From contig OX638340.1 in NCBI GenBank assembly GCA_951812955.1, positions 1,344,001 to 1,408,000 of the forward strand: a stretch of DNA of 64,000 nt. Reading direction: 5' to 3'. Within the stretch, counting starts at the first letter, position 1, and each line of letters starts with the position of its first letter. This document shows positions 2,638 to 61,448 of the stretch, piece after piece. A program made the translations under genes and the position numbers. Origin of the DNA: an uncultured Gemmatimonadota bacterium. Lineage in GTDB: Bacteria > JAAXHH01. Under the pieces are notes generated by a model. That model was not told where the DNA came from. It saw only the letters and a list, made by a program, of their open reading frames with translations, and did no database searches.

Positions 2638-2686
2638 CCCGTTGTAAGCCCGGTTTTTGGTCGTGCCCCCAGGGATACTGGTAGCT

Positions 2687-2971
2687 ATGCACTCGATCAT
2701 CAAACAACACCGCACCGAGATCCTCGCCCTCGCCGAACTCCACGGCGTCGCCAATGTGCGCGTGTTCGGATCCATGGCAAGGGAAGATGCTGATGACTCG
2801 AGCGACGTCGATCTACTGGTGTCGCTGCCTTCTGGTAAAACAGGCCTCGCACTTGGCGCCCTGTTGATGGACGTGCAAGACCTTCTGCAACGGCGTGTGG
2901 AAGTCGTGACCGTGAAGAGTCTTCATCCTGCTCTCCGGGATAACGTGCTGAACGAGGCGCAGTCGCTATGA
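2687..2971 (+). CDS. mntA: nucleotidyltransferase-family antitoxin (MntA-like)
   Basis: GSxAR(G/E)DA...SDVDLLV minimal nucleotidyltransferase motif. 4-bp ATGA overlap with the downstream HepT gene. The ORF track starts at 2657 but an internal Met at 2687 matches the second copy's start. Confidence 0.75.
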   Translation: MHSIIKQHRTEILALAELHGVANVRVFGSMAREDADDSSDVDLLVSLPSGKTGLALGALLMDVQDLLQRRVEVVTVKSLHPALRDNVLNEAQSL

Positions 2972-3312
2972 AATCCGACGCGCGGTCCGATAGAGTGTTG
3001 CTGGAACACATCCGAGAGTGTATTGACCGTATTAGTGAATACACCGGCTGTAAGCGCTCATCGTTCTACGCCTCGCGTCTGGTTCAGGACGCAGTGGTAC
3101 GTAATCTGCAATTGCTTGCGGAGTCAACGCAACGCCTGAGTAACGCTGTTAAAGAAACCGAGACGGATATACCCTGGCGTGCCATTGCAGGATTTCGAAA
3201 CGTGCTCGTACACGGTTATCTTGAGATTGACCTCGATGCAGTTTGGAGCGTGGTTGAACAGGACCTCCCGAAGTTATCCAGGGCAATCGATCGCATGGTC
3301 CGATCCGTATGA
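2968..3312 (+). CDS. hepT: HepT-like (DUF86/HEPN) toxin
   Basis: Conserved WRAIAGFRNVLVHGYLEIDLDAVW (Rx4-6H HEPN motif). Classic MntA/HepT gene order and overlap. Confidence 0.75.
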   Translation: MKSDARSDRVLLEHIRECIDRISEYTGCKRSSFYASRLVQDAVVRNLQLLAESTQRLSNAVKETETDIPWRAIAGFRNVLVHGYLEIDLDAVWSVVEQDLPKLSRAIDRMVRSV

Positions 3313-4569: not shown

Positions 4570-6087
4570 TTGACCGTCGGAGTGGTCTCAGTGAAAAGTA
4601 CCGAAATCCGTCCAATCTGGAATCCCCGTACCGGCATTGAAGGTCTTGACGGAGATCCCAATGAACTGAGTTCTTCCGAGATCCCCGGAATAAAAGCGAG
4701 CTGGACCGAGCAGCAGGAGCGGTTGAAGGACAAGGCCCAACTTTCTGACTTCACCGAGAAGTTGAGCCGGGAATGGGCAATAGAAACCGGTATTCTTGAG
4801 AATCTATACGAAATCGACCGTGGCGTCACGCAGACTCTCATCGAGCGGGGTTTTCAATCCGAAATTCTCAGCTACGGAACGACAAATAAGCCCCGAGAAT
4901 ACGTGATCCAACTCTTGCGAGATCAGAAGGAAGCCCTGGACGGCGTATTCGCGTTCGTCAAGAACGACCGGTCCCTCACTACGTCTTACATAAAAGAACT
5001 ACACGCGGCATTACTGCGCAACCAGCACACGACCGAGGCGCTCGACAGTCTGGGTAGAACAGTTGAAGTCCCGCTCCTCAAGGGAGACTGGAAAACCCAG
5101 CCCAACTACCCCGTCCGGGATGGCGTGACGTACAGCTACTGCCCGCCGGAACAGGTTAGTTCTGAGATGGACCGGTTGCTCGAGATGCATGAGGCGCAGG
5201 TCGAAAGCGGCGTGTCTGCCGAGGTACAGGCCGCTTGGCTGCATCATCGTTTCACCCAGATCCATCCCTTTCAAGATGGAAACGGACGCGTGGTCCGTGC
5301 GATCGCTTCACTGGTGCTCGTAAAGGAAGGACTTTTCCCGCTTGTGATAAGGAGGGACGACAGGGGCAGATACCTGGAAGCCCTCGAAGCCGCCGACCTC
5401 GGCGACCTGAACCCGCTTGTCATGCTGTTCACTGGACTGCAAAGAGATCAGTTCCTGAAGGCGACCAAGATATCTGAAGAACTACGTTTGGAAGAGGACG
5501 TGCAGGTAGTCTTGGACGGGCTGGACAGGGAAGCCCGCAGAATCGCAACGGAGAGGCTCAAGGCACACAGGGAGGTATTCGGTTTGGCCAGCGCTATCGA
5601 AAATGATCTAGAAGAACGTTTGAATACGATAGCAAAAGAAGTTTCGGGAGCACTAAATCAGGTAGCGTCCGGCGCAACTACATTCGTGCGAAGATCCGAC
5701 GAGAAAACGGATTATTTCTACAGGGCGCAGATCGTCAAGATTGCAAATGAACACATTGATTATTACGCCAATACGTCCGAATACCGATCATGGGTTTCAT
5801 TAAACATGCGATGGTCGCGTCGAGGGCAGTTGGTATTCGCGCTACACGGAATCGGCAAACCATTCAACGGTGGCCTTATCTGCGCGCCATTTCTGGAATT
5901 CAGAGATTACGACGATACCGACGAGGAGCACGGCGAGCGTCAATCAAATTCAACCCTCATTCCGGTCGCCGAGGAAGGTTTCGTTTTCTTCTACAACGAG
6001 GACAAGGATCGACTTCTCGGAAGGTTCAGGCCCTGGCGGGAAAACGTCCTCAAGATTGTCATAAAAGAACTCGCGCAAAACCTCTGA
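4570..6087 (+). CDS. fic: Fic family protein (AMPylase fold) with long C-terminal extension
   Basis: Canonical Fic motif HPFQDGNGRVVRAIASLVL in the middle of a 505-aa protein. TTG start at 4570; GTG 4591 with GGAG upstream is an alternative. About 50% GC, lower than the flanks. Confidence 0.8.
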   Translation: MTVGVVSVKSTEIRPIWNPRTGIEGLDGDPNELSSSEIPGIKASWTEQQERLKDKAQLSDFTEKLSREWAIETGILENLYEIDRGVTQTLIERGFQSEILSYGTTNKPREYVIQLLRDQKEALDGVFAFVKNDRSLTTSYIKELHAALLRNQHTTEALDSLGRTVEVPLLKGDWKTQPNYPVRDGVTYSYCPPEQVSSEMDRLLEMHEAQVESGVSAEVQAAWLHHRFTQIHPFQDGNGRVVRAIASLVLVKEGLFPLVIRRDDRGRYLEALEAADLGDLNPLVMLFTGLQRDQFLKATKISEELRLEEDVQVVLDGLDREARRIATERLKAHREVFGLASAIENDLEERLNTIAKEVSGALNQVASGATTFVRRSDEKTDYFYRAQIVKIANEHIDYYANTSEYRSWVSLNMRWSRRGQLVFALHGIGKPFNGGLICAPFLEFRDYDDTDEEHGERQSNSTLIPVAEEGFVFFYNEDKDRLLGRFRPWRENVLKIVIKELAQNL

Positions 6088-7961: not shown

Positions 7962-8246
7962 ATGCACGCTATAATCGAACAGAACCGCGCGGAAATCCTC
8001 GCCCTTGCCGAACGCCATGGCGTCGCCGACGTGCGCGTATTCGGGTCCATGGCGAGGGGCGACGCCGACGACGCCGGCGATGTCGACCTACTGGTGTCAC
8101 TGTCGCCTGGCAAAACAGGTCTTGCACTCGGAGCGCTGTTGATGGACGTGCAGGACCTCCTGCAACGACGTGTTGAAGTCTTAACGGAGAAAAGCCTTCA
8201 TCCTGCCCTCCGTGAAAACGTGTTGCGCGAGGCGCAGCCGTTATGA
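7962..8246 (+). CDS. mntA: nucleotidyltransferase-family antitoxin (MntA-like), second copy
   Basis: 94 aa, highly similar to 2687-2971 (GSMARGDADDAGDVDLLVSL). AGGATAAGG precedes the ATG. Confidence 0.75.
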   Translation: MHAIIEQNRAEILALAERHGVADVRVFGSMARGDADDAGDVDLLVSLSPGKTGLALGALLMDVQDLLQRRVEVLTEKSLHPALRENVLREAQPL

Positions 8247-8390: not shown

Positions 8391-8588
8391 ATGAATGTCA
8401 GTAAAGAAGAAAACACCAGACTCACTCCTTCGACAGTCAAACTCAAGCGGTTAATAGGGACCTCGCCTGCTCCTCGAATGTTGACGCCATACGAAATCAA
8501 GTTGCTGCGGCAAGCCGCGAAGGAAGTGGCCGAAGTTACGGAAGAAGTCCTCGCTGAGAAAGACAGTAGTAAGGAAGAAGGATGCTGA
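8391..8588 (+). CDS. small hypothetical protein (65 aa) overlapping the cas3 start
   Basis: ORF with about 48% GC, helical Lys/Glu-rich C-terminus. Its stop overlaps the cas3 ATG by 7 nt, suggesting translational coupling. No recognisable motif. Confidence 0.3.
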   Translation: MNVSKEENTRLTPSTVKLKRLIGTSPAPRMLTPYEIKLLRQAAKEVAEVTEEVLAEKDSSKEEGC

Positions 8589-11045
8589 CCTTCGAGCGGT
8601 TTTTCTCCACAGCGTTCGGTAAAGACGTTTGTCCTTTCGCCTATCAACAGGCTCTCGCAAAGCAGGCCTGGCCAGACGCGCTCATTGCTCCGACCGGCCT
8701 TGGCAAGACCGCCGCGGTGGTGCTTGGTTGGGCCTGGAAACACGCCGTAGTCGAATCTCCAACTCCACGTCGCCTCGTTTATTGCCTGCCTATGCGCACG
8801 CTCGTCGAGCAAACCGAGCGGAATGTCAGAGAATGGCTGCGTGAACTGGGCAAAGCAAATACGGACTGGAAATCACGCCTTCCGGACCCTGAAGCCGGAG
8901 TCCATGTCCTCATGGGCGGCATGGATGAGCCGCGCTGGTTTGAAACACCTGAACGACCGGCCATCCTGATCGGAACTCAAGATATGCTGATCAGCCGCGC
9001 CCTGATGCGGGGGTACGCCATGAGCCGCTTCCGCTGGCCAGTGGACTTCGCCTTGTTGCACAACGACGCGCAGTGGGTTTTTGACGAAGTGCAATTGATG
9101 GGAGCAGGCCTGGCGACCTCTACACAACTCGAAGGTTTTCGTCGTACGTTCGGAACGGAGATCCCTTCGTGCAGTCTCTGGGTGTCAGCGACCCTTCACC
9201 CGGACTGGCTACATACGGTTGATTTCCAGCAACGTCCTACGGTGTGGCGTGTTCCATGTGATTTCCCCGACGATATACATTCATCGCAAGTCCTCAAACT
9301 GATTAACGCGTGTAAGCCAATTCAGCCGTCGTCCGTCGCGCCGATGAGTGCCAAGAAGGCCGATCTGAACGCATACGCGACAGCGTTGGCGAAGGAAACC
9401 CGGAGTCTGCACCAAGAAAACAATACGACGCTTGTGGTACTCAATACAGTCGCCCGCGCCCAAGCCGTGCATAAAGCACTTCAGAAGATGGATGTTGCGC
9501 CTGCTTGCCTTGCTCTCATCCACTCGCGGTTTCGGCCTAAAGATCGCACCCGGCAGATGGACAAGTTGCCGCAAACCGGGGAAACAAAAAAACTGATCGT
9601 AGTCGCGACGCAGGCGATTGAAGCAGGTATCGATCTATCAGCGGCGGTCCTGCTCACCGAACTCGCGCCTCCTTCGTCCCTTACCCAGCGGTTCGGTCGG
9701 GTAAATCGCTACGGTGAGTTGAACGATTCCGGTGGCGGGACGGTCCGCTGGATAGATATCATCGGAGGCGACCTCGGTGATTCGTTGGCGGCTCCGTATG
9801 AGATTAACGAACTCAAAATCGGGCGCGAGCGGATTGCCGCGTTAAAGGACGCTCGGCCCTCTAATCTCGTGCCGCCCGCATCAGACGACTGCGCCTATCG
9901 GGGTGTGATACGATCCAGGGATATGCTGGACCTATACGACACCGATCCGGATTTGACCGGCTTTGATGTCGATATCGCTCCTTACGTCCGCGATGCTGAA
10001 GATACCGATATTCGAGTTTTCTGGCGCGATTTCGACGTGCAGTCTGGACCAGAGGACCAGACTGCACCCATGCGGGACGAGCTTTGTGCGGTTCCGATTG
10101 GGCGCGCGCGTAACTGGCTTAGGGATGTCAGAAAGAAGGAAGGGCAGCGGGTATTTCGCATAGACCCGCAGGCACGAGCTAATGGGAAGGGTAGCGTTCC
10201 GACTTGGACCGCGTTCCGAGAGGAACCGTGGCCGGGTTTGGTGTTGATGGTTCATGCGAGTGCTGGGGGTTATGCACCGGACACGGGGTTTGATCAGGGT
10301 CTAAAAACAGCAGTCGAGCCTGTGAAGCTAGGAGAGGAACAGCAGACGGCAGACGAGTCGAACGACGGCGATTCCGACAGCGAGCAGAGCAGGTGCGTGG
10401 AACTGACGGATCATCTGGACCACGTGGCTTTTGAAGCCAGATACCTATGCGATGGCCTCGACGTTTGTGAAGCTTGGAAAGCCACAATCCTCCAGGCAGC
10501 GTACTGGCACGACCTCGGTAAAGCACACCCTGAGTTTCAGGCGCGAATGGTTGCAAGTAACACGGAGGCCGACCCACCACCAGAAGGGTTGCTAGCCAAG
10601 GCTCCGAAGTACGACCGCACGAAAGGACGTGCATATTTCCGGCACGAACTTGCGTCTGCACTAGCATTTCTCACACAAGCAGGCTGGGTACGCAAGGCCG
10701 ATCTTGTTGCGTACCTGATAGCCGCCCATCACGGCAAGGTACGCCTGAACTTGCGTCCCCTACCAGCCGAAAGTCGGGTAATGGGGGAGGATGGACGGCG
10801 TTTTGCTCGCGGCGTGTGGGAGGGAGACGAGATACCGTTGGTTAGTTTGGGCAATGGGGAAACATGGACAGGGGGGCCACTCGCACTATCCGTGATGGAG
10901 TTAGGCGAGCATCCGGAAACTGGGGCAAGTTGGACCGAGCGTACGCGAAATTTGCTTTCCCAGTACGGTCCTTTTCAGCTCGCTTGGTTGGAGGCACTTG
11001 TACGTATCGCCGACTGGCGGGCATCAGCAAAAGAAGAACGAGGTC

Positions 11046-11062
<17 letters not shown>
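8582..11062 (+). CDS. cas3: Cas3 helicase-nuclease, type I-G architecture (helicase N-terminal, HD C-terminal)
   Basis: Walker A APTGLGKT near the N-terminus and a DEVQ (DExx-type) box with helicase C-motifs. The HD-nuclease motif AAYWHDLGKAHPEFQ sits at about residue 640, i.e. C-terminal as in I-G/I-U Cas3. Confidence 0.85.
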
Positions 11063-14598
<3,536 letters not shown>

Positions 14599-14605
14599 GT
14601 CTCGA

Positions 14606-16240
14606 ATGTTTGCACTTACTTTCACCTTTCCTTTGGGCCGCTATCACGCAACGCCGTGGGGGCGCCATGTCAACGAAGCCGATGTCGCTTGGCCGCCAGA
14701 GCCTTGGCGCATTCTTCGTGCGCTCGTCGCTACCTACTGGCGCAAAGGCGACCGGGTACGCTGGTCCGAGGACACACTCGCCCGTCTAGTAGACGCGCTA
14801 GCCCAGGATGCGCCGATCTATCACTTGCCCCCAGGCGTGATCCACGCACATACCCGGCATTACATGCCCACACCTAAAATGACGCTCGTCTTCGACGCCT
14901 TTGCCCACTTGTCTAAAGACGAACAGATCGTAGCGGCTTGGCCAGAACTCGAATTGGACGTCGAACTATTTGATTTGGCGGCTGATCTCGCAGAGGGGCT
15001 CGGCTACCTGGGGCGTGCCGAGAGTTGGGTTGAATGCGGAACGATAACCGACTGGAACCAAGATGTGGCAAACTGCCATCCTGTGGGCCAAAATGGGACC
15101 GCCCACGGGGAGATAGTGCGAGTGCTCACACCGCTCAGTGCTCAGGATTATATGGTGGAGCGTACGCGCCTGTTGGAGGAAGTTGACGATGCAGAGCGAG
15201 ACCGCACCGCTGCTTCCGGCAAGAGACCTCCTACCCCCAGAGCCCTTGAAAGGGCACGCAACAAAGCGTTCGGGCCGACCCTTCCTGATCGTCTGGTCGA
15301 AGCCTTGATGCTCGATACGGCCGATTACCAAAAATACCGTTGGAACCGACCGCCAGCCTCACGTGAGATTGTTTATACACGTCCGCCTCTGTCCCCTGTT
15401 CCTCGCCGTGCCCGGATTCGTGCAACAGTTGATGACCGCAGACAATTCACCGTAGCGCGCTTTCTTTTGGCCGGCCGTCCCCGACCTCGTATTGAGGATG
15501 CGGTCAAGATCGGTGAACTCATGCGGCTTGCCGCGCTTTCCAAGTTTGGTTGGGAGGACAAGAGACCCAGAGCACCGTCGGTGATATCAGGCCGGGGTTC
15601 TGATGGCCGACCATTACGCAACGGCCAGCATTCGCATGCGTTTTGGTTGCCCGAGGACGCCGATGGCGATGGCTGGATTGACCATATAACGGTTTACGCA
15701 GAGGAAGGTTTCGATGTTTCAGTGCGCGAGAAGCTGGATCGACTGACCCGTTTGTGGGTCGGTGGAGACGATTCCGGTGGAGAGGAAGGAGATAAAGAGA
15801 CCGGTCGCCAAGAGTGGCGACTGGCCTTGGAGGGCTTTGGCCGCCCGGAGGACTTTGCGGACACATCAAGGCTATTTAGCTGTTCAGATGAATGGGAAAG
15901 TGTAACACCTTTTTTGGCGTCTGGTCACTTAAAAAAGGCCGGGTATGAAGGCGAGATACATCGGCTTTGGAAGCGCAGACGAGTCACATCTGGTTCGCAT
16001 ACTGAGCCTGTACAGGTCGAAATCTTGCGCCACATCGAGATTCACGGTACTCTCCGTAGAGCAGTGCATTTTCATCGATTCCGTTCACGGGGACGAGAGA
16101 AGCAACCCGACGCGCAAGGGGCCTTGCTGCGCCTGAGTTTTAACGAGCCAGTTACAGGACCCTTAGCTCTTGGATATGCCTGCCATTTTGGTCTTGGAAT
16201 GTTCGCACGCCCAATCCTAGACGCAAAATCGGAACAATGA
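14606..16240 (+). CDS. cas5: Cas5-Cas6 fusion (Csb2/Cas5u-Cas6u family)
   Basis: 544 aa starting MFALTFTFPLGRYHATPW, the Cas5-like N-terminus of Csb2-family proteins. C-terminal half Gly-rich. Correct position for the I-G order. Confidence 0.65.
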   Translation: MFALTFTFPLGRYHATPWGRHVNEADVAWPPEPWRILRALVATYWRKGDRVRWSEDTLARLVDALAQDAPIYHLPPGVIHAHTRHYMPTPKMTLVFDAFAHLSKDEQIVAAWPELELDVELFDLAADLAEGLGYLGRAESWVECGTITDWNQDVANCHPVGQNGTAHGEIVRVLTPLSAQDYMVERTRLLEEVDDAERDRTAASGKRPPTPRALERARNKAFGPTLPDRLVEALMLDTADYQKYRWNRPPASREIVYTRPPLSPVPRRARIRATVDDRRQFTVARFLLAGRPRPRIEDAVKIGELMRLAALSKFGWEDKRPRAPSVISGRGSDGRPLRNGQHSHAFWLPEDADGDGWIDHITVYAEEGFDVSVREKLDRLTRLWVGGDDSGGEEGDKETGRQEWRLALEGFGRPEDFADTSRLFSCSDEWESVTPFLASGHLKKAGYEGEIHRLWKRRRVTSGSHTEPVQVEILRHIEIHGTLRRAVHFHRFRSRGREKQPDAQGALLRLSFNEPVTGPLALGYACHFGLGMFARPILDAKSEQ

Positions 16241-16444
16241 AACGCAGCATTTACAATGACACCTCAGTCATTGGAGTTTGTTATAGAGTTGTTTCAAGGA
16301 AGCTATAACTGTCGATCGATTCTTACATAATCTCGATGTTGTTCATACAGCCTTAAGTCGAGACGTATCCCTGGACCCACGACAGCTAAAACGTACGAAC
16401 ATTTTGCAGAACGAGTAGCCGCGAATACTTCAGCGACTCACCAC

Positions 16445-18157
16445 ATGAACCACATCCACCAACTCACGCTACCAATACCTCCGCCCCCAGTCGACGCGAA
16501 TACGCCATTGGTCCCAGCGCGCATGGTCAACGAATGGGTCTATTGCCCGCGACTGGCCTACCTGGAATGGGTTGAAGGAGAGTGGGCGGAGACGGGAGAC
16601 ACCGCCGAGGGACGGCGTACACACGTAAGGGTCGACGAAGGTGGCGGCCGTCTGCCCGGACCGGAAGAACTGGATGATGAGATGGCCCGCGCCCGGTCCG
16701 TCACGCTTTCGTCGGATCGTCTCGGCGTAATCGCCAAGATAGACGTCGTGGAAGCCGAAGAAGGAATCGTCACGCCCGTGGATTTCAAGAAAGGCAAGCG
16801 TCCCCATGTCGCCACTGGCGCCTACGAGCCCGAACGCGTCCAGATCTGCACGCAGGCCATGATCCTGGAGGACAATGGTTACAGAGTGGAGCGCGGTATG
16901 CTCTGGTACGCCGGGTCGCGTGAGCGCGTCCCGGTGATGCTTGACGATGAACTTCGATCCCTGACCCTGGCGGCAATCAGAGAATTGCGCGTCGCCGCGG
17001 CTGATGGCCGTCGGCCACCGCCTCTGGAAAACAGCCCGAAGTGCCCCCGCTGTGCCCTGGCGGGGATCTGTCTGCCCGACGAAACCAACCTGTTCCGCAA
17101 AGGGACTGCACCACGCCCGCTGAACCCATCGGATGATCCGGCCCTGCCGCTCTACGTACAGGAACCGGGGGCGCGACTGCGAAAGAGCGGTGAGCGCTTG
17201 GTGGTGGAAATCAAGGAAGAATCCGTAGAGGTACCCATAATCGACGTTTCCCAGGTCGCTCTGTTCGGCCCCGTCTCGGTGACCACACCGGCTCTGCACG
17301 CGCTGATGAACGCGGAGATTCCGGTATCGTGGTTTTCCACGGGAGGCTGGTTCCTCGGCCATACAGTAGGAACAGGGCATGGAAACGTGGCCGTTCGCGA
17401 AGCGCAATACCGCGTAGCCTTCGATAAAGGCGCTCGCCTTGCCTTCGCGCGCGATCTCGTGGCGGCTAAGGCGCGTAACGCCCGTACGATGTTGCGTCGC
17501 AACTGGCGCGTCAATATGGACGCGGAAATCAGGGATGAAGCCCTAGTCCGGCTCAGGGGAGTCGTGCGCCGCATCTCCCGCGCCACGGACGAAAGCCAAC
17601 TGCTGGGCCTGGAAGGCGAGGCCGCCGCAGTGTATTTCAACTGCTTCGAGCACATGCTTGCTAAGGATCTGGACGGCGGCGCGACGGGGTTCTCCTTCAC
17701 CAAGCGCAATCGGCGGCCTCCCACGGATCCGGTGAACGCGCTCCTGTCGCTGGCCTACGCTTTGTTGACGCGGGTATTCACTACGACCATCTCGGCGACG
17801 GGGCTCGACCCCTACATGGGCCTCTACCACCATACGCGCCACGGGCGCCCGGCGCTGTCCCTCGATCTAATGGAACCGTTCAGACCTATTGTCGCCGACT
17901 CCTGCGTTATTCAAGCCATCAACAACGGCGAAGTAAAGCTGGCCGATTTCGTGTTCAACGGGGCTGCTTGTTCGCTGAAGCCTGCTGGTCGCAAGTCCTT
18001 CATCGCCGCGTTCGAGCGGCGCATGGAGCAGGAGACCACACATCCGCTTTTCGGCTATCGCGTTTCCATGCGGCGACTTATCGAGGTACAGTCCCGATTG
18101 CTCGCCCGGCATTTTCAGGGAGAGATCGTCTCTTACCCTCATTATCTTCCCCGGTAG
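16445..18157 (+). CDS. cas4: Cas4-Cas1 fusion
   Basis: N-terminal Cas4 RecB-like domain with Cys cluster (YCPRLAYLEW ... CPRCALAGICLP). C-terminal Cas1 (GLDPYMGLYHHTRHGRPALSLDLMEPFRPIVAD). An alternative start at M26 (16520) is possible. Confidence 0.85.
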   Translation: MNHIHQLTLPIPPPPVDANTPLVPARMVNEWVYCPRLAYLEWVEGEWAETGDTAEGRRTHVRVDEGGGRLPGPEELDDEMARARSVTLSSDRLGVIAKIDVVEAEEGIVTPVDFKKGKRPHVATGAYEPERVQICTQAMILEDNGYRVERGMLWYAGSRERVPVMLDDELRSLTLAAIRELRVAAADGRRPPPLENSPKCPRCALAGICLPDETNLFRKGTAPRPLNPSDDPALPLYVQEPGARLRKSGERLVVEIKEESVEVPIIDVSQVALFGPVSVTTPALHALMNAEIPVSWFSTGGWFLGHTVGTGHGNVAVREAQYRVAFDKGARLAFARDLVAAKARNARTMLRRNWRVNMDAEIRDEALVRLRGVVRRISRATDESQLLGLEGEAAAVYFNCFEHMLAKDLDGGATGFSFTKRNRRPPTDPVNALLSLAYALLTRVFTTTISATGLDPYMGLYHHTRHGRPALSLDLMEPFRPIVADSCVIQAINNGEVKLADFVFNGAACSLKPAGRKSFIAAFERRMEQETTHPLFGYRVSMRRLIEVQSRLLARHFQGEIVSYPHYLPR

Positions 18158-18162
18158 CGACT

Positions 18163-18456
18163 ATGGCCAACGAACGTCTCTACATCGTCGCCTACGACAT
18201 ATCCGAGCCAAAGCGATGGCGGCGCGTGTACAAGCTGATGAAAGGCTATGGGCACTGGTTGCAGTTGTCGATTTTCCAGTGCAGGCTCACGGCCCGGCGA
18301 CGCGCGGAAATGACCGCTCGTCTGGAGGAATCGATCGATCTGTCGGAGGACCACATTCTGATCGTGGACATGGGTCCCGCGGACAAAGTGGATCCATTGG
18401 TAGAAAGCCTGGGCAAGGCATATGAAGCGCCGACTCGAAAAGCCACCGTCGTGTAG
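18163..18456 (+). CDS. cas2: Cas2
   Basis: 97 aa MANERLYIVAYDISEPKRWRRVYKLMKGYGHWLQLSIFQC, typical Cas2. Starts 5 nt after the cas4-cas1 stop. The ORF track's longer 17968 start is an out-of-context extension. Confidence 0.85.
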   Translation: MANERLYIVAYDISEPKRWRRVYKLMKGYGHWLQLSIFQCRLTARRRAEMTARLEESIDLSEDHILIVDMGPADKVDPLVESLGKAYEAPTRKATVV

Positions 18457-18665
18457 CCGTGCCTTTGCCGGGTCCTCCGCGAACGCTCCGGTGGAAGGGA
18501 AATGCCGGGCAGCGCTCGCGTCCTGGTATTTGTTTGTTCTGCATGGAGTTACGAGGCATTGTAACTGATTTCGGGGAGGGCGATTTGAATGTCCGTGAGA
18601 TTTTAGCAGCAGTGCTCGCAAAAGGCCTGACAAGCCTAAGTCTGCCAAAGAGTTGCTAAGGAACT
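18457..18665 (+). promoter_or_regulatory. CRISPR leader
   Basis: About 210-bp AT-richer non-coding region between cas2 and the first perfect repeat. Degenerate repeats are at the opposite end of the array. Confidence 0.5.
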
Positions 18666-21271
18666 ATTTCCGGGGCTGCGCAGCCCCGGCCTCATTGAAG
18701 CGCCGCCATATCGATCCGGATAGAAGGTTGTCCGTTCGATTTCCGGGGCTGCGCAGCCCCGGCCTCATTGAAGCACCATATGCCGGCGCGGTGATTGGGT
18801 ATTTGCGGCACGATTTCCGGGGCTGCGCAGCCCCGGCCTCATTGAAGCATCCGTCATCATAAAACCCCCGTAAATGGCCATAGGGATTTCCGGGGCTGCG
18901 CAGCCCCGGCCTCATTGAAGCCGTCGTCGCGATGGCGGTGTTCGGTGGCAACCTGTGATTTCCGGGGCTGCGCAGCCCCGGCCTCATTGAAGCCACCAGA
19001 ATACCCATGCGGCCGATAACGAGGTGCTGCTTATTTCCGGGGCTGCGCAGCCCCGGCCTCATTGAAGCCGATCCTTCCGCGAAGTGTCCGGCCTGCACCG
19101 CTCCATTTCCGGGGCTGCGCAGCCCCGGCCTCATTGAAGCATGAGTTGACGCTCCGAGATACCCAGCAGCGTCGCGAGATTTCCGGGGCTGCGCAGCCCC
19201 GGCCTCATTGAAGCCGGAAGATGTTGCTCCCCTGGCCGTCGGTGAAGAAGTTATTTCCGGGGCTGCGCAGCCCCGGCCTCATTGAAGCCGGAAGATGTTG
19301 CTCCCCTGGCCGTCGGTGAAGAAGTTATTTCCGGGGCTGCGCAGCCCCGGCCTCATTGAAGCGAGAAGATCTCCCCGGATAACGTGGACGACCCCACCGG
19401 CATTTCCGGGGCTGCGCAGCCCCGGCCTCATTGAAGCCGGTTGGCCTCCGGGTCCGGCTCGGTTTCGTGCGGTTGATTTCCGGGGCTGCGCAGCCCCGGC
19501 CTCATTGAAGCTTGGAAGCCATGATGGCCTTGGTGCCCAGGGCGAGCGCCATTTCCGGGGCTGCGCAGCCCCGGCCTCATTGAAGCTAGGCCTCCTCGCT
19601 GGCGAATCCCATCTTGTACCACTATTTCCGGGGCTGCGCAGCCCCGGCCTCATTGAAGCTCGTACACGTGGGCGGTGGTCAGCACCACCTTGGAACCGGA
19701 TTTCCGGGGCTGCGCAGCCCCGGCCTCATTGAAGCGTCGGTTTCGTCCTCGGTGTCGCGGTGACGACGCTCTATTTCCGGGGCTGCGCAGCCCCGGCCTC
19801 ATTGAAGCATCAAACACACCCTTCAAGCGTAAACATAGGCCCTGGATTTCCGGGGCTGCGCAGCCCCGGCCTCATTGAAGCCCATCAGTGTGGTCGACTG
19901 CTGCCTGCGTGTGCTGGAGAAATTTCCGGGGCTGCGCAGCCCCGGCCTCATTGAAGCCCATCAGTGTGGTCGACTGCTGCCTGCGTGTGCTGGAGAAATT
20001 TCCGGGGCTGCGCAGCCCCGGCCTCATTGAAGCATGCACATCTCGAAGTCACAGGACCAGACACAGGTGACGATTTCCGGGGCTGCGCAGCCCCGGCCTC
20101 ATTGAAGCCACGGAAGGCAGCCAGGGTCGCACCGCTGGCACCCAGATTTCCGGGGCTGCGCAGCCCCGGCCTCATTGAAGCCAAGCAATCGAACGCAAGC
20201 ACAAGCGGACGCTCGACCATTTCCGGGGCTGCGCAGCCCCGGCCTCATTGAAGCTAAGGGTATTGTCCAGGACGATGACCTGAATGAATATATTTCCGGG
20301 GCTGCGCAGCCCCGGCCTCATTGAAGCCTGTGCAAAACGCGCGGTACTTGAAATTGGCCCGTGTCATTTCCGGGGCTGCGCAGCCCCGGCCTCATTGAAG
20401 CGTGATTGATCAATTTCGAGATTAACCGTTATTTCCTCCATTTCCGGGGCTGCGCAGCCCCGGCCTCATTGAAGCAGGAACACGTGGAAGAGGTAGGAGC
20501 AGACGCGAAACCATTTCCGGGGCTGCGCAGCCCCGGCCTCATTGAAGCGAAGCTCCTGTTGAGTCTGTGAACGACTGGACGGGTTAATTTCCGGGGCTGC
20601 GCAGCCCCGGCCTCATTGAAGCGATGCAATCAGAAACCTCCTTCATCGTCGCATCCTGATATTTCCGGGGCTGCGCAGCCCCGGCCTCATTGAAGCGATT
20701 CATCGTTGGCGTTGTCGTCCACCTCCTCGGCGAGGTATTTCCGGGGCTGCGCAGCCCCGGCCTCATTGAAGCCAAGTTGACAGACATAGGAATCCAGCCT
20801 TACGCGTCCACATTTCCGGGGCTGCGCAGCCCCGGCCTCATTGAAGCTCTGAAAAAGACCTGTTGCTCCACCCCATCGAGGACGTATTTCCGGGGCTGCG
20901 CAGCCCCGGCCTCATTGAAGCGCCTTGTCGCGGATAGCCCTTGCCTGCTCCTCCAAAGCCATTTCCGGGGCTGCGCAGCCCCGGCCTCATTGAAGCCTCC
21001 AACACCAGCAACAGCACGGCAGGGTCCCTGGGCATTTCCGGGCTGCGCAGCCCCGGCCTCATTGAAGCGAATCTCCCTCCAGCGGGTTGCAGTCCTTCAG
21101 GTCCTGGGTTTCCGGGGCCGCACGGCCCCGGCCTCATTGAAGCGAGATCCCCCCGGACCCTGGTAAGGCGTCGGCGGGCAGTGTTTCCGGGGCCGCTCGG
21201 CCCCGGCCTCATTGAAGCTCGGATCCTAACTACGACCTGTTCATTATCAATTGCGTTTCCGGGCTGCGCGG
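18666..21271 (+). CRISPR. CRISPR array: 35 repeats of 36 bp (ATTTCCGGGGCTGCGCAGCCCCGGCCTCATTGAAGC) plus a partial terminal repeat; 34 spacers of 36-40 bp
   Basis: Repeats start at 18666, 18739, 18813 ... 21183 with 73-76 bp periodicity. The repeat contains the palindrome GGGGCTGCGCAGCCCC and the ATTGAAGC 3' handle typical of I-C/I-G-like repeats. Distal repeats 33-35 are mutated (GGGCTGCG, GCCGCACGGC, GCCGCTCGGC), with a repeat fragment at 21255-21271. Confidence 0.95.
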
Positions 21272-21340
21272 CGAGGATCGTGGGCCCTGATCCAGGGCTT
21301 TTAGACGTTTCGTTTCCAGACAGACTGATTTCAACGTATA

Positions 21341-24300
21341 ATGAATATCAGGAAACACCGTAACACTCATCATCCTCGACGCATTTCGCAAAGGAATTGT
21401 GCCTTGAGGTTTCTTGTCGTTCCCGTCGTCCTCTCGATCATTATCCTTCCGTCGTGCGGCAGGGAAAGCCCCACGGGACCGCCGCAGGCGGCCAGCATCA
21501 GGATATCGCCGGCCGAGGCCGTGCTGGACGCCATTGGCGCGACCGTGCAGCTCACTGCGTCGGTCCGGGACGGGAACGATCGGGAGGTACCGGACGCTGC
21601 CGTGACGTGGACCAGCGGTAACACCGAAGTGGCCAGCGTGACTGACGAGGGCCTGGTCACGGCCCGGAAGAACGGTTCCGCAGTCATCACGGCCGTTTCA
21701 GGGCAATTCCAAGCGAATGCCGCAGTCACGGTATCGCAGGCGGTCGCTAACATCGAGGTTGCGCCCGCCAGCGTGTCGCTGACGAAGACGGACGGGGCTC
21801 TGCGGGTCGACGCAGTGGTGAAAGACAGGAAAGGCAACCTGGTGGCGAACGCGCTGCTCGTCTGGACAAGCAGCGATCCCTTCGTCGTCTCAGTGAACGC
21901 CCTGGGAGTCCTCGAGGCGCGGTCGAACGGAAACGCCCGGATCACCGTGTCTTCAGGGGACGTATCGACAAGCGTGGAAGTCACGGTCTCGGGTTTCGGA
22001 CCGGATGCGCTGGACCGCGTCGCCCTGGTCGCGCTGTTCAACGAAACGGGCGGACCGGGATGGACGCTCGCCACAAACTGGTCGAGCGACTCGCCCCTGG
22101 CCGAGTGGCACGGGGTGGCGACCGATGCCGAAGGAAGGGTGATCGAATTGTTGCTCGACGGGAACGGCCTGAAGGGCGCGATCCCGGAGGAACTGGTCCG
22201 GCTGACAAGGCTCCGAGCTCTTTCCCTCGCACGCAATCAGTTGACAGGAAGCATACCCCCCGGAATCGGACGACTCGCCAGACTGGAGGTGCTGGAGGTT
22301 TCCTACAACCGTTTGACGGGAAGCATACCCCCCGAATTCGGACGACTCACCAGACTCAGGGAACTCGGCGCCAACGGCAACAACTTCTCGCCCGGGCCAT
22401 TGCCCCGGGCTATGACCAATCTCGACAACCTCGAGTTCCTGGGACTCGCGGGAACATCGCTGTGCGCGCCGCTCGACGCAGATTTCCAGGCCTGGCTCGG
22501 CGCGATAGACGACGTTGAAGTGGACAACTGCGAGGACATGGAGCGGAGCGCGCTGATCGCGTTGTACAACGCGACGGACGGAGGAAACTGGACCGAACGG
22601 GACAATTGGCTCACCGGCGTGCCCCTGAGCGCCTGGCACGGAGTTGCGACAAATGACCAGGGCCAGGTAACGGGCTTGGATCTGGCAGACAACAACCTGA
22701 GGGGAACACTGCCGACCCGACTGAGCGATCTCCGGTCTCTGAGCGGTTTGGACCTGTCCAACAACTCCGGGCTGACGGGACCGCTGCCCGTGTCGCTTGG
22801 CAGTCTCAGTCTAACGGCCCTCAAACTAGGCGGAACGGATCTATGCGCGCCGCTGGACCCCGCTTATCAGGCCTGGCTGGCCGCCATCGGGGACATACGG
22901 GTCGCTGGCTGTCCCGCCGACATCGCCCCCGACCGGGTGGCGTTGACCGCGCTATACGGCGAAACGGGCGGTGCGTACTGGAAGGAGTCCGCCAACTGGC
23001 TCGGCGAAGCGCCATTGCGAGACTGGTACGGCGTCGAGACCGACGCCGAAGGGCGTGTGACCTCCATTGACCTGAGGTACAATAACCTGAGGGGGCGGCT
23101 GCCTCCGGAATTGGCGCTGATCGACAGGCTGGAAGCGTTGCGTCTTGCCGGCAACGGCCTGACGGGGCAGATACCGCCAGAACTCGCGCGCCTCGACCGA
23201 CTCTCTGCGTTGGATCTTTCGGTGAACCTGCTGACGGGCTCCATTCCACCGGAACTGGGCCGACTGGCAGACCTCTCCGTCCTTGATCTCTCCGCCAACG
23301 GATTGACCGGGTCCGTTCCACCCCAACTGGGACGACTCGACCGACTATCCGTCCTCGACCTCCGACTCAACCGGTTACACGGCCCCGTTCCGTCCGAACT
23401 GGGGAACCTCCGCAGCCTCGGGCGACTGGCACTCTCCTCCAACGAGTTGACCGGCCGCGTGCCGCCGGAACTGGGATTATTGGCAAACCTCTCCGTCCTC
23501 GACCTCAGACTCAATCGGTTACACGGCCCCGTACCACCCGAACTGGGACGACTCGCAAACCTCAAGGAACTGAATCTCGCCAGGAACGGCTTTACGGGCC
23601 CCGTTCCACCCGAACTGGGACGGCTCCCAAACCTCGAGGATCTGGAACTCTCCACCAACGAGTTGACGGGCCCCGTTCCGCCCGAACTGGGACGACTCGC
23701 AAACCTCAAGGAACTGAATCTCGCCACCAACGGCCTGACGGGCCCCGTTCCGCCCGAACTGGGACGACTCGCAAACCTCGTCACGCTGAGCCTGGCGTCG
23801 AATCAGCTGACGGGATCGGTCCCGCCCGAACTGGGACGACTCGCAAATCTCGTCACGCTGAGTCTTTCCGGTAACGCCGCGCTGTCGGGGACGTTGCCGC
23901 GCGCGTTGCTCAACCTCGACCTGGCCTCCCTGCTCCTGGCCGGTACGCGCCTCTGCGCGTCCCGGGACGTGGAGACTCAGGCTTGGTTGCGGGATATCGA
24001 TGAAAGGCGCGTTTCCGACTGCGGCGATTCCGTCCCGCTTATTATGTCTGCGTATCTCACACAGGCGGTGCAGTCCCTCGAAAATCCAGTGCCGCTGGTT
24101 GCCGGCAAGCCCGCGCTCCTGCGCGTATTCTTAACGAACGGCGGCATGGCCGACGCCAAACGGCCGCCGGTACGCGCTACATTCTACCGGAACGACCTTC
24201 CAGTGCACACGACCGAGATATCGGGCGGAGACGATAGACTGCCGGACAGTCCGGAGGAAGGACAACTCGCGGCTTCATCCAACGCCGCGATACCGGCCGA

Positions 24301-25492
24301 AGTCGTTCGGCCGGGCCTGGAAATGGTGATAGAAATCGATCCCGGCAGCATACCGGATTCCGCTTTGGACATCGGTCGCCGCCTGCCGTCTACCGGACGG
24401 TTGGCTTTGGAGGTGGTGGAGGTGCCGCCCCTCCATCTTACCCTGGTCCCGTTTCTGTGGTCGTCGAATCCGGACCGGACGCTCGCGGATTACGCCTCGG
24501 GCCTGTCGTCCGATGACGAACTGTTCAGGATGACCCGGGAAACGTTGCCGGTTGGTGATTTCCATCTGACCGTGCGCGAGCCCGTCTGGACCTCGGTGGT
24601 ATCCGAGGCGAAGAACACCATATCGATCCTGGTTGAGGTCTATGTGGTTCGCATCCTGGACGGCGCCCGGGGACATTATATGGGTATCCTCCCTGCCGGA
24701 GAACGGGTGGGCGTTGCCGCCATCCCGGGATACTTCGGTGTGGCGGCGCTGAACGGACGCATCATTGCCCATGAACTCGGACACAACATGAACCTGGGGC
24801 ACGCGCCGTGCGGCGACCCGGCCGGGGTGGACCCCGACTACCCCTACTTCGACGGGACTACCGGCGCATGGGGCTACGACGTCCTGTCGGAATCATTGGT
24901 GTCGCCGCAAAACTTCGACTTGATGAGTTACTGCCTCCCCAATGGGATCAGTGACTTCCACTTCGTCAAGGCGCTGATTTACCGGCGGTCCGAGGAAACG
25001 CCCGTTCCAGCAGCGCGCGCCGCTTCCGCGACCAACCTGCTGCTATGGGGCGAAGTGAACGAGTTTACGGAAACCGTCCTCCATCCTGCCTTCGTGGTCG
25101 ACGCCCCGCCCGCCCTGCCGGAGACCGGCGGTCCGTATCGCATCACCGGTGAAGACGGAGCAGGGAACACGCTGTTCGCGCTGTCCTTCGGCGCGGTGGA
25201 AGTCGCGGACGGGGCCGGGAGTGTTTTCGCGTTCGTCCTTCCCGTCCAGGAGGACTGGCTCGATCGATTGCATCGGATCGCGTTATCCGGCCCGGACGGG
25301 GTGAAGACGGTAGATCGAAGAGGAGGGTCGGCCGCCGCGATCATGTTAGACCGGACGACCGGAACGGTCCGGGGCATCCTCCGAGACTGGCCCGACCAGG
25401 GCGGCTCTCAGCCGTTCGCGCGGCGCGTGCTGCCGGACGGTGATTTCGAAGTCCTGGTCAGCCACGGCATCCCAGATTCGAATCCCCGGTAA
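21341..25492 (+). CDS. large secreted lipoprotein: Big_2 Ig-like domains + about 20 plant-type LRRs + C-terminal metzincin (reprolysin-like) zinc protease
   Basis: Lipobox LPSCG. Three Ig-like Big_2 segments (VTWTSGNTEVASV...). Repeated 24-aa LRR units (LxxLxLxxNxLTGxIPPELGRLxxL) in four blocks capped by Cys motifs (LCAPLD...C). HELGHNMNLGH zinc site plus a Met-turn (DLMSYC) in the C-terminal domain. Confidence 0.75.
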   Translation: MNIRKHRNTHHPRRISQRNCALRFLVVPVVLSIIILPSCGRESPTGPPQAASIRISPAEAVLDAIGATVQLTASVRDGNDREVPDAAVTWTSGNTEVASVTDEGLVTARKNGSAVITAVSGQFQANAAVTVSQAVANIEVAPASVSLTKTDGALRVDAVVKDRKGNLVANALLVWTSSDPFVVSVNALGVLEARSNGNARITVSSGDVSTSVEVTVSGFGPDALDRVALVALFNETGGPGWTLATNWSSDSPLAEWHGVATDAEGRVIELLLDGNGLKGAIPEELVRLTRLRALSLARNQLTGSIPPGIGRLARLEVLEVSYNRLTGSIPPEFGRLTRLRELGANGNNFSPGPLPRAMTNLDNLEFLGLAGTSLCAPLDADFQAWLGAIDDVEVDNCEDMERSALIALYNATDGGNWTERDNWLTGVPLSAWHGVATNDQGQVTGLDLADNNLRGTLPTRLSDLRSLSGLDLSNNSGLTGPLPVSLGSLSLTALKLGGTDLCAPLDPAYQAWLAAIGDIRVAGCPADIAPDRVALTALYGETGGAYWKESANWLGEAPLRDWYGVETDAEGRVTSIDLRYNNLRGRLPPELALIDRLEALRLAGNGLTGQIPPELARLDRLSALDLSVNLLTGSIPPELGRLADLSVLDLSANGLTGSVPPQLGRLDRLSVLDLRLNRLHGPVPSELGNLRSLGRLALSSNELTGRVPPELGLLANLSVLDLRLNRLHGPVPPELGRLANLKELNLARNGFTGPVPPELGRLPNLEDLELSTNELTGPVPPELGRLANLKELNLATNGLTGPVPPELGRLANLVTLSLASNQLTGSVPPELGRLANLVTLSLSGNAALSGTLPRALLNLDLASLLLAGTRLCASRDVETQAWLRDIDERRVSDCGDSVPLIMSAYLTQAVQSLENPVPLVAGKPALLRVFLTNGGMADAKRPPVRATFYRNDLPVHTTEISGGDDRLPDSPEEGQLAASSNAAIPAEVVRPGLEMVIEIDPGSIPDSALDIGRRLPSTGRLALEVVEVPPLHLTLVPFLWSSNPDRTLADYASGLSSDDELFRMTRETLPVGDFHLTVREPVWTSVVSEAKNTISILVEVYVVRILDGARGHYMGILPAGERVGVAAIPGYFGVAALNGRIIAHELGHNMNLGHAPCGDPAGVDPDYPYFDGTTGAWGYDVLSESLVSPQNFDLMSYCLPNGISDFHFVKALIYRRSEETPVPAARAASATNLLLWGEVNEFTETVLHPAFVVDAPPALPETGGPYRITGEDGAGNTLFALSFGAVEVADGAGSVFAFVLPVQEDWLDRLHRIALSGPDGVKTVDRRGGSAAAIMLDRTTGTVRGILRDWPDQGGSQPFARRVLPDGDFEVLVSHGIPDSNPR

Positions 25493-43011: not shown

Positions 43012-44721
43012 TTATCGTTGAGTCAGTTGATTAGCACCCTGAGGTCGGACAATTGTTACCAAGTTACGAGCTCTGGTAATCCCAACTCTGAGAAGCCGAC
43101 GGCTACGATTGTAAGGAGGATGTTCTCGCTTTTCGTCAAAAAAACGTGATTCAAACTTGCCTTCCACTATAACGACGCCGTCGAATTCTTTGCCCTTACA
43201 CTTGTGCAAATTCATAAGCACGCATCCTTGTGGGTCACGCTCCAGCGCAAGCAGTAGTTCATGATTTAATACCTTCCGTATTGTAGCGGTTGCTTCTATG
43301 TAACTTCCAGACTCTAACCACAATTCCGATAGTGCTTTAGAAAGTACATCTGTAGCTTGAAACAAACGCACCATACTTGCTGACCGGAATACATCATTTA
43401 TCACTTTGTGTACCCTTAGAATATCTCTTGCACTACGCCAATCGGAAACTGGGTCACCGCGATATTCAATACCGTTGGATGCAATTTCTACCATATTTCT
43501 TGCAGCCTGAATACGCGGGAGGCGGCCCATTATTACCGCCTCTGATGCCTCGGCGAATTGCCGAGTTAGTTTCGAAGCAACTTTCGAATGTTGCTCGGCG
43601 TTTTTTAAGCGAAAATACCTTGAAAGGCAGGCAAGTGTATCTGAGACGGTTCTTGCATCAAATTCAGTTCGCCACTCCAATATGGATCCTACGATTTCAG
43701 CCGAGGAGGCCGATAGATTGGCATCCCATACCACATCGTGAGGTATTGGTTTTATCTCACGCTTTTTATAAACATGAGTATCTTGAAGTATCGCTGAAAG
43801 TTGCGCGACATGCCGATTGCTTTTAGTTAAGACTGCGACACACGGATTGTGAATTCCCTTCTTACGTAACAAAGCGATGGTAAAGTGAACTGCTGCATGA
43901 AAAACTGAGTCAAATCCATTCGGCCAGTAGTATTGAACTATCTTAACATTGCTAGTTTTGGGTAGCTCTTCATTGTTTAAGACAGCGTCTGCGAATGATA
44001 GGATTCCGGCTTGTGGACTTCTGTGATTGACCTTACCAAGATCGAACTCAGCGAAGCCAAGTGTAACCCTAGCTGAGTTTATCCTTTGGAAGCTTACAGT
44101 TGGTCGATAGTCAAATATGCACTGTTCCGGATCGGCTAGACATACTACATCAGTTACACTTGCCAATGATTTAATAAGTCGCCACTGGTCTTCGTCGGTA
44201 TCCTGAAACTCATCAACAATGATTAGCGGAAATCGATCGCCATACATGGATCTTACTGCTTCGCTTTCCGCGACAATCATTGCAGCTCCCTTTGCAAATT
44301 GATCAAAACAGTAGATTCCTTCTACTTGCGCAAGACGAACCTGTTCAGCCTCCCAATCTCCTTCAAAAAAAGACTTCTTCAATCGCTCACCTTTGGGAGT
44401 TAAAATACGAGTAGGGAATCCACCCAAAAGCCGCCCATGTCCTCGCAATATTTCACGACAAAAGAGATGGTAAGTCTTTACCTGAATAAGTCGACGTTCT
44501 TCATTCTTCAATAGGTCCTGACTCCTGCCTAGTATCTGGCGTATCGCTGCTCGTGAGAAGCTTAAGAACAGTATACCTTGACCGGGTTCAAGTCCCTTAC
44601 AGCGAGCTTTGGCTTTCAACAGTGCAATAGTTGTCTTGCCAGATCCAGGGCCACCCTTAACGAGCATGTGGCCTGTTTGATTGATAATAGATTGGTGGAT
44701 TTCTTTTAAATCTAGATTCAT
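43012..44721 (-). CDS. gajB: UvrD-like SF1 helicase, Gabija GajB-like
   Basis: Walker A GGPGSGKTT and Walker B/UvrD motif IIVDEFQDTDEDQW. 4-bp overlap with the upstream OLD-family gene. AT-rich. Confidence 0.7.
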   Translation of the reverse strand: MNLDLKEIHQSIINQTGHMLVKGGPGSGKTTIALLKAKARCKGLEPGQGILFLSFSRAAIRQILGRSQDLLKNEERRLIQVKTYHLFCREILRGHGRLLGGFPTRILTPKGERLKKSFFEGDWEAEQVRLAQVEGIYCFDQFAKGAAMIVAESEAVRSMYGDRFPLIIVDEFQDTDEDQWRLIKSLASVTDVVCLADPEQCIFDYRPTVSFQRINSARVTLGFAEFDLGKVNHRSPQAGILSFADAVLNNEELPKTSNVKIVQYYWPNGFDSVFHAAVHFTIALLRKKGIHNPCVAVLTKSNRHVAQLSAILQDTHVYKKREIKPIPHDVVWDANLSASSAEIVGSILEWRTEFDARTVSDTLACLSRYFRLKNAEQHSKVASKLTRQFAEASEAVIMGRLPRIQAARNMVEIASNGIEYRGDPVSDWRSARDILRVHKVINDVFRSASMVRLFQATDVLSKALSELWLESGSYIEATATIRKVLNHELLLALERDPQGCVLMNLHKCKGKEFDGVVIVEGKFESRFFDEKREHPPYNRSRRLLRVGITRARNLVTIVRPQGANQLTQR

Positions 44722-46604: not shown

Positions 46605-46686
46605 GCTATAGTCCTCCAAATGCAGTTTAATTTGCTTCGATATGAATACATCTTGGTTGTATTTGTAAGAATAGAAACTACCTACA

Positions 46687-47505
46687 TTATACGACATGCT
46701 CAGGATTTGACGGTTTTCTACGCCCAAACGCATACCTGAAAGTCACCCAGAGTATCTTCACTCCCGCCCGGACCGCCCCGGACAGCGTTCCCGTGATCTT
46801 GGAAACCCCGACCCGCTTCCGGTACCGCACCGGGACGTCGAGGGTGCGGTACTTCCTTTGTGCTGCCTTGATCTGCATTTCGACGGTCCAGCCAAAGTTT
46901 TGATCCGCCATTTCGAGCTCGAGCAGCCTGTCGTAGCGTATGGCCCGGAACGGTCCCAGATCGGTATATCGATGTCCGTAGAGCCAACGGATGATCCTGG
47001 GAACGAGGACGTTGCCTATCACGGCCTGGACCGGCATGGCGCCCGGCGCGCGGTGTCCCAGCATCCGTGACCCGATCACCATGTCGTAACCCGCTTCCAC
47101 GACCGGGCGCACCAGGTCTGCCAAGTCTTCTGGGTAATCGCTGTAATCGCCGTCCAGGAACACGATGACGTCCGGATCGAACCGGGCGGCCTCGGCCATG
47201 CCGCGCAGGCAGGCGGCCCCGTACCCGCGCCGGGGTTCCTTCACGACGACCGCGCCACCCTCCGCGGCCACTGCCCCGGTCCGGTCCGTCGAACCGTTGT
47301 CCACGACGATTACGGCCGTGGCCATCCCCTCCGGAATGTGTGCCAGGACCAGTCCGATCGAATCCTCTTCGTTCAGGACCGGAATGATGACCACGATGGT
47401 CTGTTTGTCCGCTGATCTTGCCATCTCGCTGTGTCGACCCCTGTTTGCCATCGGAGGAGGACCAGATACCCTGCGGTCGCCGGCAGGTTCCGCCGACCCC
47501 TCCAT
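46687..47505 (-). CDS. family 2 glycosyltransferase (Dpm1-like)
   Basis: TIVVIIPVLNEEDSI...VVDNGSTDRT motif. A start at M28 (47424) is more likely than 47505. Confidence 0.75.
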   Translation of the reverse strand: MEGSAEPAGDRRVSGPPPMANRGRHSEMARSADKQTIVVIIPVLNEEDSIGLVLAHIPEGMATAVIVVDNGSTDRTGAVAAEGGAVVVKEPRRGYGAACLRGMAEAARFDPDVIVFLDGDYSDYPEDLADLVRPVVEAGYDMVIGSRMLGHRAPGAMPVQAVIGNVLVPRIIRWLYGHRYTDLGPFRAIRYDRLLELEMADQNFGWTVEMQIKAAQRKYRTLDVPVRYRKRVGVSKITGTLSGAVRAGVKILWVTFRYAFGRRKPSNPEHVV

Positions 47506-61440: not shown

Positions 61441-61448
61441 GGCGGATC

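Follow-up and report, generated by a model that had tools for sequence, protein, structure and literature searches.

Which kind of CRISPR-Cas system occupies positions 8582-21271 of a 64,000-nucleotide stretch of contig OX638340.1 (the window, by which we mean this whole stretch), is it complete, and how closely does it resemble the systems already characterised? An earlier note had read the locus as a complete type I-G (I-U) system with a 35-repeat array. By reading the gene junctions and profile alignments, we found that 8582-21271 contains six genes, all directed along the + strand, and after them a repeat array; the genes, their order and the repeat count were all borne out. Judging from sequence, we are highly confident in assigning the locus, as a complete adaptive immunity system, to CRISPR-Cas class 1, type I-G (formerly I-U). 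The genome nearest to it is that of an uncultured Gemmatimonadota, assembled from a metagenome, in agreement with the uncultured lineage named earlier. No type I subtype has been studied less than I-G, to which the locus adds a complete, intact, uncultured Gemmatimonadota-like example; the classification itself is nothing new, as public data hold ~5,800 Csx17 homologues and standard models recognise every cas gene.

Gene content and subtype

The operon opens with cas3g (8582-11062, +), encoding a helicase-nuclease of 826 amino acids (aa) with an N-terminal superfamily 2 helicase and a C-terminal HD nuclease. It is followed on the same strand by cas8g (also csx17 or cas8u2; from 11052, or 11046, to 13652; 866 aa, large subunit), cas7g (csb1; 13642-14598; 318 aa, backbone subunit) and csb2 (14606-16240; 544 aa), a Cas5-Cas6 fusion and presumed endoribonuclease of the CRISPR RNA (crRNA) precursor, a role taken from PMC9638904. 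The adaptation module consists of a cas4g/cas1g fusion (16445-18157, +; 570 aa; spacer selection and integration) and cas2 (18163-18456, +; 97 aa, start read from sequence), after which come a leader of 209 bp (18457-18665, +) and the CRISPR array (18666-21218, +), in which 35 repeats of 36 nt enclose 34 spacers of 36-40 nt. Both ends of cas8g overlap its neighbours, the start lying inside the end of cas3 and the stop inside the start of cas7g. A program-made list of open reading frames (ORFs) gave longer, TTG-started versions of cas8g and cas2; we chose the shorter starts because of the profile alignments and the 866-aa product P0001 of the same genome, which is 100% identical to our Cas8g. 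The operon is contiguous, its sole gap being the 204 bp between csb2 and cas4/cas1 (16241-16444, +) that separate the interference and adaptation modules, and a terminator-like hairpin lies within it at 16254-16273.

For all six Cas proteins the score of the best NCBIfam model exceeded its curated cut-off, with I-G-specific models for five and a generic one for Cas2: Cas3g matched TIGR02621 at 748 bits (cut-off 400), Cas8g/Csx17 TIGR04113 at 611 bits (cut-off 150), Cas7g/Csb1 TIGR02570 at 118 bits (cut-off 38), Csb2 TIGR02165 at 172 bits (cut-off 45), Cas4g/Cas1g NF049935 at 766 bits (cut-off 560) and Cas2 TIGR01573 at 40 bits (cut-off 24.5). The middle genes, for which profile searches had been proposed as a check, are therefore of I-G type rather than of I-C or any other subtype. 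PADLOC named all six genes as subtype g, calling the csb1 product Cas7g and the csx17 product Cas8g, with scores of 884 bits for Cas3g, 496 bits for Cas56g (Csb2) and 101 bits for Cas2g. Pfam searches returned DEAD, Helicase_C, Cas3-like_C_2 and Cas3_HD (residues 630-817) on Cas3, Cas_GSU0053 (PF09617, 148 bits) on Cas7g, Cas_Cas4 and Cas_Cas1 on the fusion protein and CRISPR_Cas2 (64 bits) on Cas2. On re-inspection, the helicase of Cas3 occupies residues 4-588 and the HD domain residues 608-815, which is the I-G arrangement and confirms the C-terminal HD position that had been noted. All of the sequence-level features that define I-G are present in the locus.

We considered whether the effector genes might come from a different type I subtype (I-C, I-B or I-E-like), resembling I-G only by gene order. 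Models for I-C, I-D and I-B did weakly match Cas1, Cas4 and the Cas3 helicase core, as expected from shared domains, but the matches of other-subtype models were limited to these shared cores and all fell below cut-offs, and the I-G-specific models were far ahead: Cas4g/Cas1g reached 766 bits, as against 293 bits for Cas1c, whose cut-off of 385 was not attained. Cas8g, Cas7g and Csb2 matched I-G models only. Cas8g moreover resembles the solved I-G large subunit 8b2x_M (E = 3e-161), and cas5, cas6 and cas11 do not occur as separate genes in the operon. With the I-G models scoring far higher, and above their own cut-offs, we rejected another type I subtype as having a negligible chance of being correct. 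The closest Cas8g relatives raise a different possibility, namely that the window holds a composite I-G and III-A locus sharing one array. In L003, a type III-A module (cas10, csm2, csm3, csm4 and csm6; 14786-19690) sits between csb2 and cas4/cas1, and at the corresponding junction L004 and L006 show a cas10-like N-terminus with a gap of several kb; these three look like composite I-G/III-A loci with one common adaptation module. In the window, however, the junction measures only 204 bp, and type III genes gave no match across the 64 kb at E <0.05, so that a composite locus is very improbable here, though type III genes could still lie elsewhere in the 3.8-Mb genome. We therefore retain the reading of a type I-G locus alone.

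Two characterised systems provide the closest points of reference. The gene order cas3-cas8u2-cas7-cas5/6-cas4/1-cas2-leader-array is that of the I-U/I-G operon of Geobacter sulfurreducens PCA (GSU0051-GSU0058; PMC6547450, PMC9638904), as the earlier note had claimed in calling it the I-G architecture. The leader of 209 bp is close in length to the 205 bp of G. sulfurreducens (PMC6547450), spacers of 36-40 nt are close to its typical 36 nt, and the NCBIfam and Pfam models named for GSU0051, GSU0053 and GSU0054 all match window proteins. Thioalkalivibrio sulfidiphilus HL-EbGr7 (8b2x; PMC9638904), a gammaproteobacterium as opposed to the Gemmatimonadota-like host of the window, shares the effector genes cas3, cas8g, cas7 and csb2, as well as a 36-nt repeat with, as predicted here, a hairpin, 4 nt and a putative 8-nt handle, and the absence of a cas11 gene; no evidence was found for an internal cas11 within cas8g of I-G systems (PMC9638904). 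Relative to T. sulfidiphilus, the window locus further contains, in the I-G arrangement, cas4/cas1 and cas2. It also differs in three ways: a ~115-aa beta insertion in Cas8g, placed between residues ~92 and 122 of the 8b2x_M chain; a second Cas8g insertion of ~40 aa at residues ~612-651; and a 65-aa ORF joined to the start of cas3. The Cas8g insertions and the small upstream ORF are the only respects in which the locus departs from the characterised I-G systems.

Among uncultured relatives, L001/L002 (GCA_964655785.1, an uncultured Gemmatimonadota) matches the complete cas operon at 89.6% nucleotide identity and carries both the Cas8g insertion and the small ORF. L083 (LXNJ01005410.1) reaches 85% identity across cas4/1, cas2 and the leader, and 94.7% over the downstream gene. 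L001 retains the upstream genes of the window (Fic, PhyH and MNT/HepT) and L083 the downstream gene. The repeats of L001 and L083 are nearly identical to that of the window, with a difference at the first base, G or GT versus A. Many other close Cas8g loci belong to bins of uncultured Latescibacterota, Vicinamibacterales, Binatia, Spirochaetia and Candidatus Palauibacter, several of whose names presumably stem from sponge and coral microbiome studies. Beyond the sister genome, the nearest Cas8g relatives are ~71-75% identical and reside in other phyla, which implies horizontal transfer.

Repeat array, predicted mechanism and activity

The repeat unit is the 36-nt sequence ATTTCCGGGGCTGCGCAGCCCCGGCCTCATTGAAGC, of which fuzzy matching found exactly 35 copies in the array and none elsewhere in the window. 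The first 32 repeats are identical. In repeat 33 a gap-free comparison shows 4 differing positions, which we read as the loss of one G from a GGGG run, and repeats 34 and 35 carry 4 substitutions each, keeping the stem through a compensating change of a U-A to a C-G pair. The contrast between identical leader-proximal and decayed distal repeats drawn in the earlier note is thus accurate, and since decay is restricted to the leader-distal end, the polarity runs from cas2 through the leader and the newest spacers to the oldest. Beyond repeat 35 lie a 36-nt spacer-like stretch (21219-21254, +) and then, from 21255 to 21272, a degenerate stub of a 36th repeat (GTTTCCGGGCTGCGCGGC...), which accounts for the end coordinate of 21271 given previously. 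Two repeat-spacer units are exactly duplicated in tandem, giving spacers 8 and 9 (19179-19326) and spacers 17 and 18 (19846-19997), which leaves 32 distinct spacers, or 33 when the one before the stub is included. Spacer guanine-cytosine (GC) content is 58%, similar to that of the host region.

The Rfam model CRISPR-DR16 matches the repeats on the + strand. In the predicted fold, the repeat RNA forms an 8-bp stem closed by a loop of 4 nt; CCUC comes next, and then AUUGAAGC. The Csb2 of T. sulfidiphilus cleaves 4 nt 3' of the base of the hairpin, leaving an 8-nt handle (PMC9638904), and the modelled repeat would fit this I-G cleavage geometry exactly, with its hairpin, 4 nt and 8-nt handle.

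We inspected the catalytic motifs of Cas3 and of Cas4/Cas1. Direct reading located helicase motifs I, II, III and VI of Cas3 (PTGLGKT37, DEVQ168, SAT202 and QRFGR369) as well as its HD motifs (H611, H643-D644 and H716-H717). The Cas4 part has its Fe-S/RecB motifs (Cys34/200/203/209, D100 and K115) and the Cas1 part has E390, H462 and D474/E477. By homology to the characterised Thioalkalivibrio and Geobacter systems (PMC9638904; PMC6547450), we infer expression, PAM (protospacer adjacent motif) use, interference and current acquisition along the following lines. Transcription of the + strand array would start from the leader, and Csb2 would cleave each repeat 4 nt downstream of the 8-bp hairpin, yielding a crRNA with an 8-nt AUUGAAGC 5' handle and a 3' hairpin. 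This crRNA would be bound by ~7 Cas7g subunits together with Csb2 and Cas8g, and Cas3g would be recruited to the complex via Cas8g. Upon formation of an R-loop next to a PAM, probably 5'-TTN, Cas3g would unwind the target DNA and degrade it with its C-terminal HD nuclease. During adaptation, prespacers containing a PAM would be trimmed by Cas4g/Cas1g and Cas2 and integrated at the repeat nearest the leader.

The earlier note had further described the array as actively acquiring, and as a record of the invaders of this lineage. To place the first claim, we compared the array with those of its orthologues. Leader conservation across the three orthologous loci (window, L001 and L083) is 85-91%, with a mean column identity of 91%, and no spacer is shared with L001 or L083, although the arrays lie between the same flanking genes. 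The stub GTTTCCGGGCT also terminates the array in L082, so that the array boundary is ancestral. We conclude that the array has been present at this site since before the lineages split and that its spacer content has turned over completely. Such turnover fits an active adaptation module. Active acquisition is no more than plausible on this footing: the intact adaptation genes, the leader, the uniform repeats and the spacer turnover are all compatible with it, and the turnover speaks to evolutionary time rather than to the present day. In the trailer of the orthologous array, in L082 (reverse strand) and at 5270-5500 of L083, we also observed half-repeats consisting of the 3' part only (CCCCGGCCTCATTGAAGC) with short spacers between them.

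The spacers themselves are there, and in the collections searched no convincing target was found for them, so that the record of invaders is unreadable so far; it may gain in use when viromes from the source habitat exist. A sensitive blastn search of the whole array against 50,697 phage records and 72,556 plasmids returned chance-level matches and other CRISPR arrays only. For IMG/VR, we ran exact-word scans with spacers 1, 2, 3, 14 (both halves), 16 and 22, and with a 17-mer shared with L083. The six spacers gave zero matches there, and the shared 17-mer gave six, none of which extended past the 17-mer. That 17-mer, CAAACACACCCTTCAAG, is common to spacer 16 (19809-19845) and spacer 1 of L083 (4398-4433), whose flanks are unrelated; we roughly estimate its chance expectation at ~2e-5. 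In the search for self-targets within the window, no match exceeded 15 nt with one mismatch. Most promising is spacer 14 (19660-19699), the reverse complement of which encodes GSKVVLTTAHVY and which matches, at 34/40 nt, the part of an HNH endonuclease gene (gp052, Caulobacter phage TMCBR4) that carries the HNH motif. We take this as a sign that spacer 14 derived from a gene of a kind found in phages; the Caulobacter phage gene is a homologue only, and we rejected it as the target itself.

Several of these observations weigh against a fully functional type I-G system of the characterised kind. No protospacer from which to infer a PAM was found in phages, plasmids, IMG/VR or the window, whereas a TTN PAM and priming have been shown experimentally in Geobacter (PMC6547450). 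A scan for sigma-70-like promoters, of a kind that may not suit the phylum, detected none in the leader or upstream of cas3. The tandem duplications 8/9 and 17/18 point to recombination or slippage rather than to new acquisition, or are possibly an effect of the assembly. Given the Cas8g insertions and the small ORF, details of assembly or regulation may also differ from those of the characterised systems. One could accordingly picture a locus that is I-G by sequence yet an inactive relic, its genes and array kept without ongoing acquisition or interference. The lack of spacer matches to the phages, plasmids and IMG/VR contigs tested would agree with such a relic, as would the recombination origin of the two duplications and the decay of the locus in related genomes, where L090 has only a truncated cas3, L093-L095 have only cas3 fragments, and L091 keeps the small ORF while a cas3 match is absent. 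Set against this are six full-length genes, with catalytic motifs present where inspected, 32 identical repeats, a conserved leader and three orthologous loci without a common spacer; missing protospacer matches are in any case expected, as viruses of an uncultured host-associated lineage are poorly sampled. We consequently judge an inactive relic to be unlikely, if less so than the composite locus discussed above, and continue with an apparently intact type I-G system.

Cas8g insertions and a small ORF upstream of cas3

The larger Cas8g insertion covers residues ~129-243 of the N-terminal domain (~115 aa, all-beta; 11436-11780, +) and has no counterpart in 8b2x_M or in most homologues. AlphaFold2 models it as 8 beta strands with a per-block predicted local distance difference test (pLDDT) score of ~50-90. 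The GC content of this segment is 46.8%, compared with 56.7% for the rest of the gene, and it has no Pfam match. It is confined to a small clade (P0002-P0007, P0033, P0068 and P0069, with L002 among the genome representatives). As other lineages have a ~30-aa helical expansion at the same site, the site appears to be a hotspot of variation. An origin by copying from the neighbouring Ig-like and leucine-rich repeat protein was rejected, the insertion having no similarity to the rest of the window. The second insertion (~40 aa, residues ~612-651) was modelled by AlphaFold2 with low confidence. Within Cascade, PAM sensing generally falls to the Cas8 large subunit. For this reason, and because Cas8g holds Cas3 in I-G systems (PMC9638904), the beta domain could alter target recognition; it could also help to evade anti-CRISPR proteins.

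Immediately upstream of cas3 lies an unannotated small ORF of 65 aa (8391-8588, +), whose TGA stop overlaps the cas3 ATG (ATGCTGA). The family to which it belongs comprised 35 clusters by word search and 199 representatives by exhaustive profile search, nearly all of 40-120 aa, with an invariant core G-x-SPAPRMLTPYEI-x-LLR. Across 15 homologous loci, synonymous changes made up 62% of single-base codon differences in its own frame versus 26% and 16% in the shifted frames. Since substitutions gather at third codon positions in its own frame alone, the ORF encodes a protein under purifying selection, and we rejected a DNA or RNA regulatory element as the source of the conservation. Searches of Pfam, NCBIfam, PADLOC and PHROGs returned no match, and we assign the product to no known family. 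In the AlphaFold2 model (pLDDT 79), a short helix is followed by a conserved loop and then by a long helix; a fold search of it against the PDB gave insignificant helical-hairpin matches only. The exact sequence was not found in the protein collection, and we take it that the ORF was left uncalled in this genome or called with a different start. Fusion of the small ORF to Cas3 in some genomes was likewise dismissed: among the 150 of 199 matches listed, none exceeds 233 aa.

The ORF occurs in 10 of 80 sampled I-G loci, and its family adjoins cas3g or its remnants in several phyla. It stands directly upstream of cas3g in L001-L006 and L092, next to the truncated cas3 of L090 and next to the short cas3 fragments of L093-L095; in L091 no cas3 match was detected nearby. 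In L031 it is found ~1.5 kb upstream of cas3, between cas3 and a divergent cas4/1-cas2, and in L035, L048, L050 and L052 it is located elsewhere in the I-G locus, in L050 just upstream of a CARF-domain gene. Its product is 54% identical in amino-acid sequence between the window and L001, a far greater divergence than that of the cas genes beside it. As a conserved and unannotated small protein that is linked to the 5' end of cas3g and persists beside cas3 remnants, it would be a candidate regulator or accessory factor, and we propose with low confidence that it acts as a regulator or as a Cas3-associated factor. A bolder proposal would make it a dedicated component of an I-G sub-clade, as a cas3 regulator or Cas3 partner, that together with the Cas8g beta insertion marks a structurally and regulatorily distinct I-G variant. 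We hold this only tentatively, as one possibility with the balance leaning against it; if true, the variant would circulate among Gemmatimonadota and other lineages with relatives in sponge and coral bins.

Neighbouring features in the window

Upstream of the locus, a gene for a Fic/DOC-domain protein of 505 aa (4570-6087, +) is syntenic in L001. Between it and the small ORF lies an MNT-type nucleotidyltransferase antitoxin gene (7962-8246), followed by an apparent truncated remnant of HepT (to 8300). An intact MNT/HepT pair occupies the corresponding site in L001, and similar DNA also occurs at ~2680-3297 in the window. Directly downstream of the array, a 1383-aa protein (21341-25492, +) contains Big_2 Ig-like domains and many leucine-rich repeats, with a weak match to M66 peptidases. 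This repeat protein is eukaryote-like, and its position is conserved in L082 and L083. Eukaryote-like repeat proteins have been reported in host-associated bacteria.

Further along, on the - strand at 43012-46733, an island of low GC (~44% versus 60%) carries genes for a 671-aa OLD-type ATPase/TOPRIM protein and a 569-aa UvrD-like helicase, a Gabija-like defence pair that was probably acquired horizontally. Towards the end of the window we identified a bacterial class A RNase P RNA (60865-61240, -; 275 bits), beside which an 18-nt tandem repeat, CGGCCGGGTTGCGCGTTG, is present in ~6-7 copies at 61313-61443.

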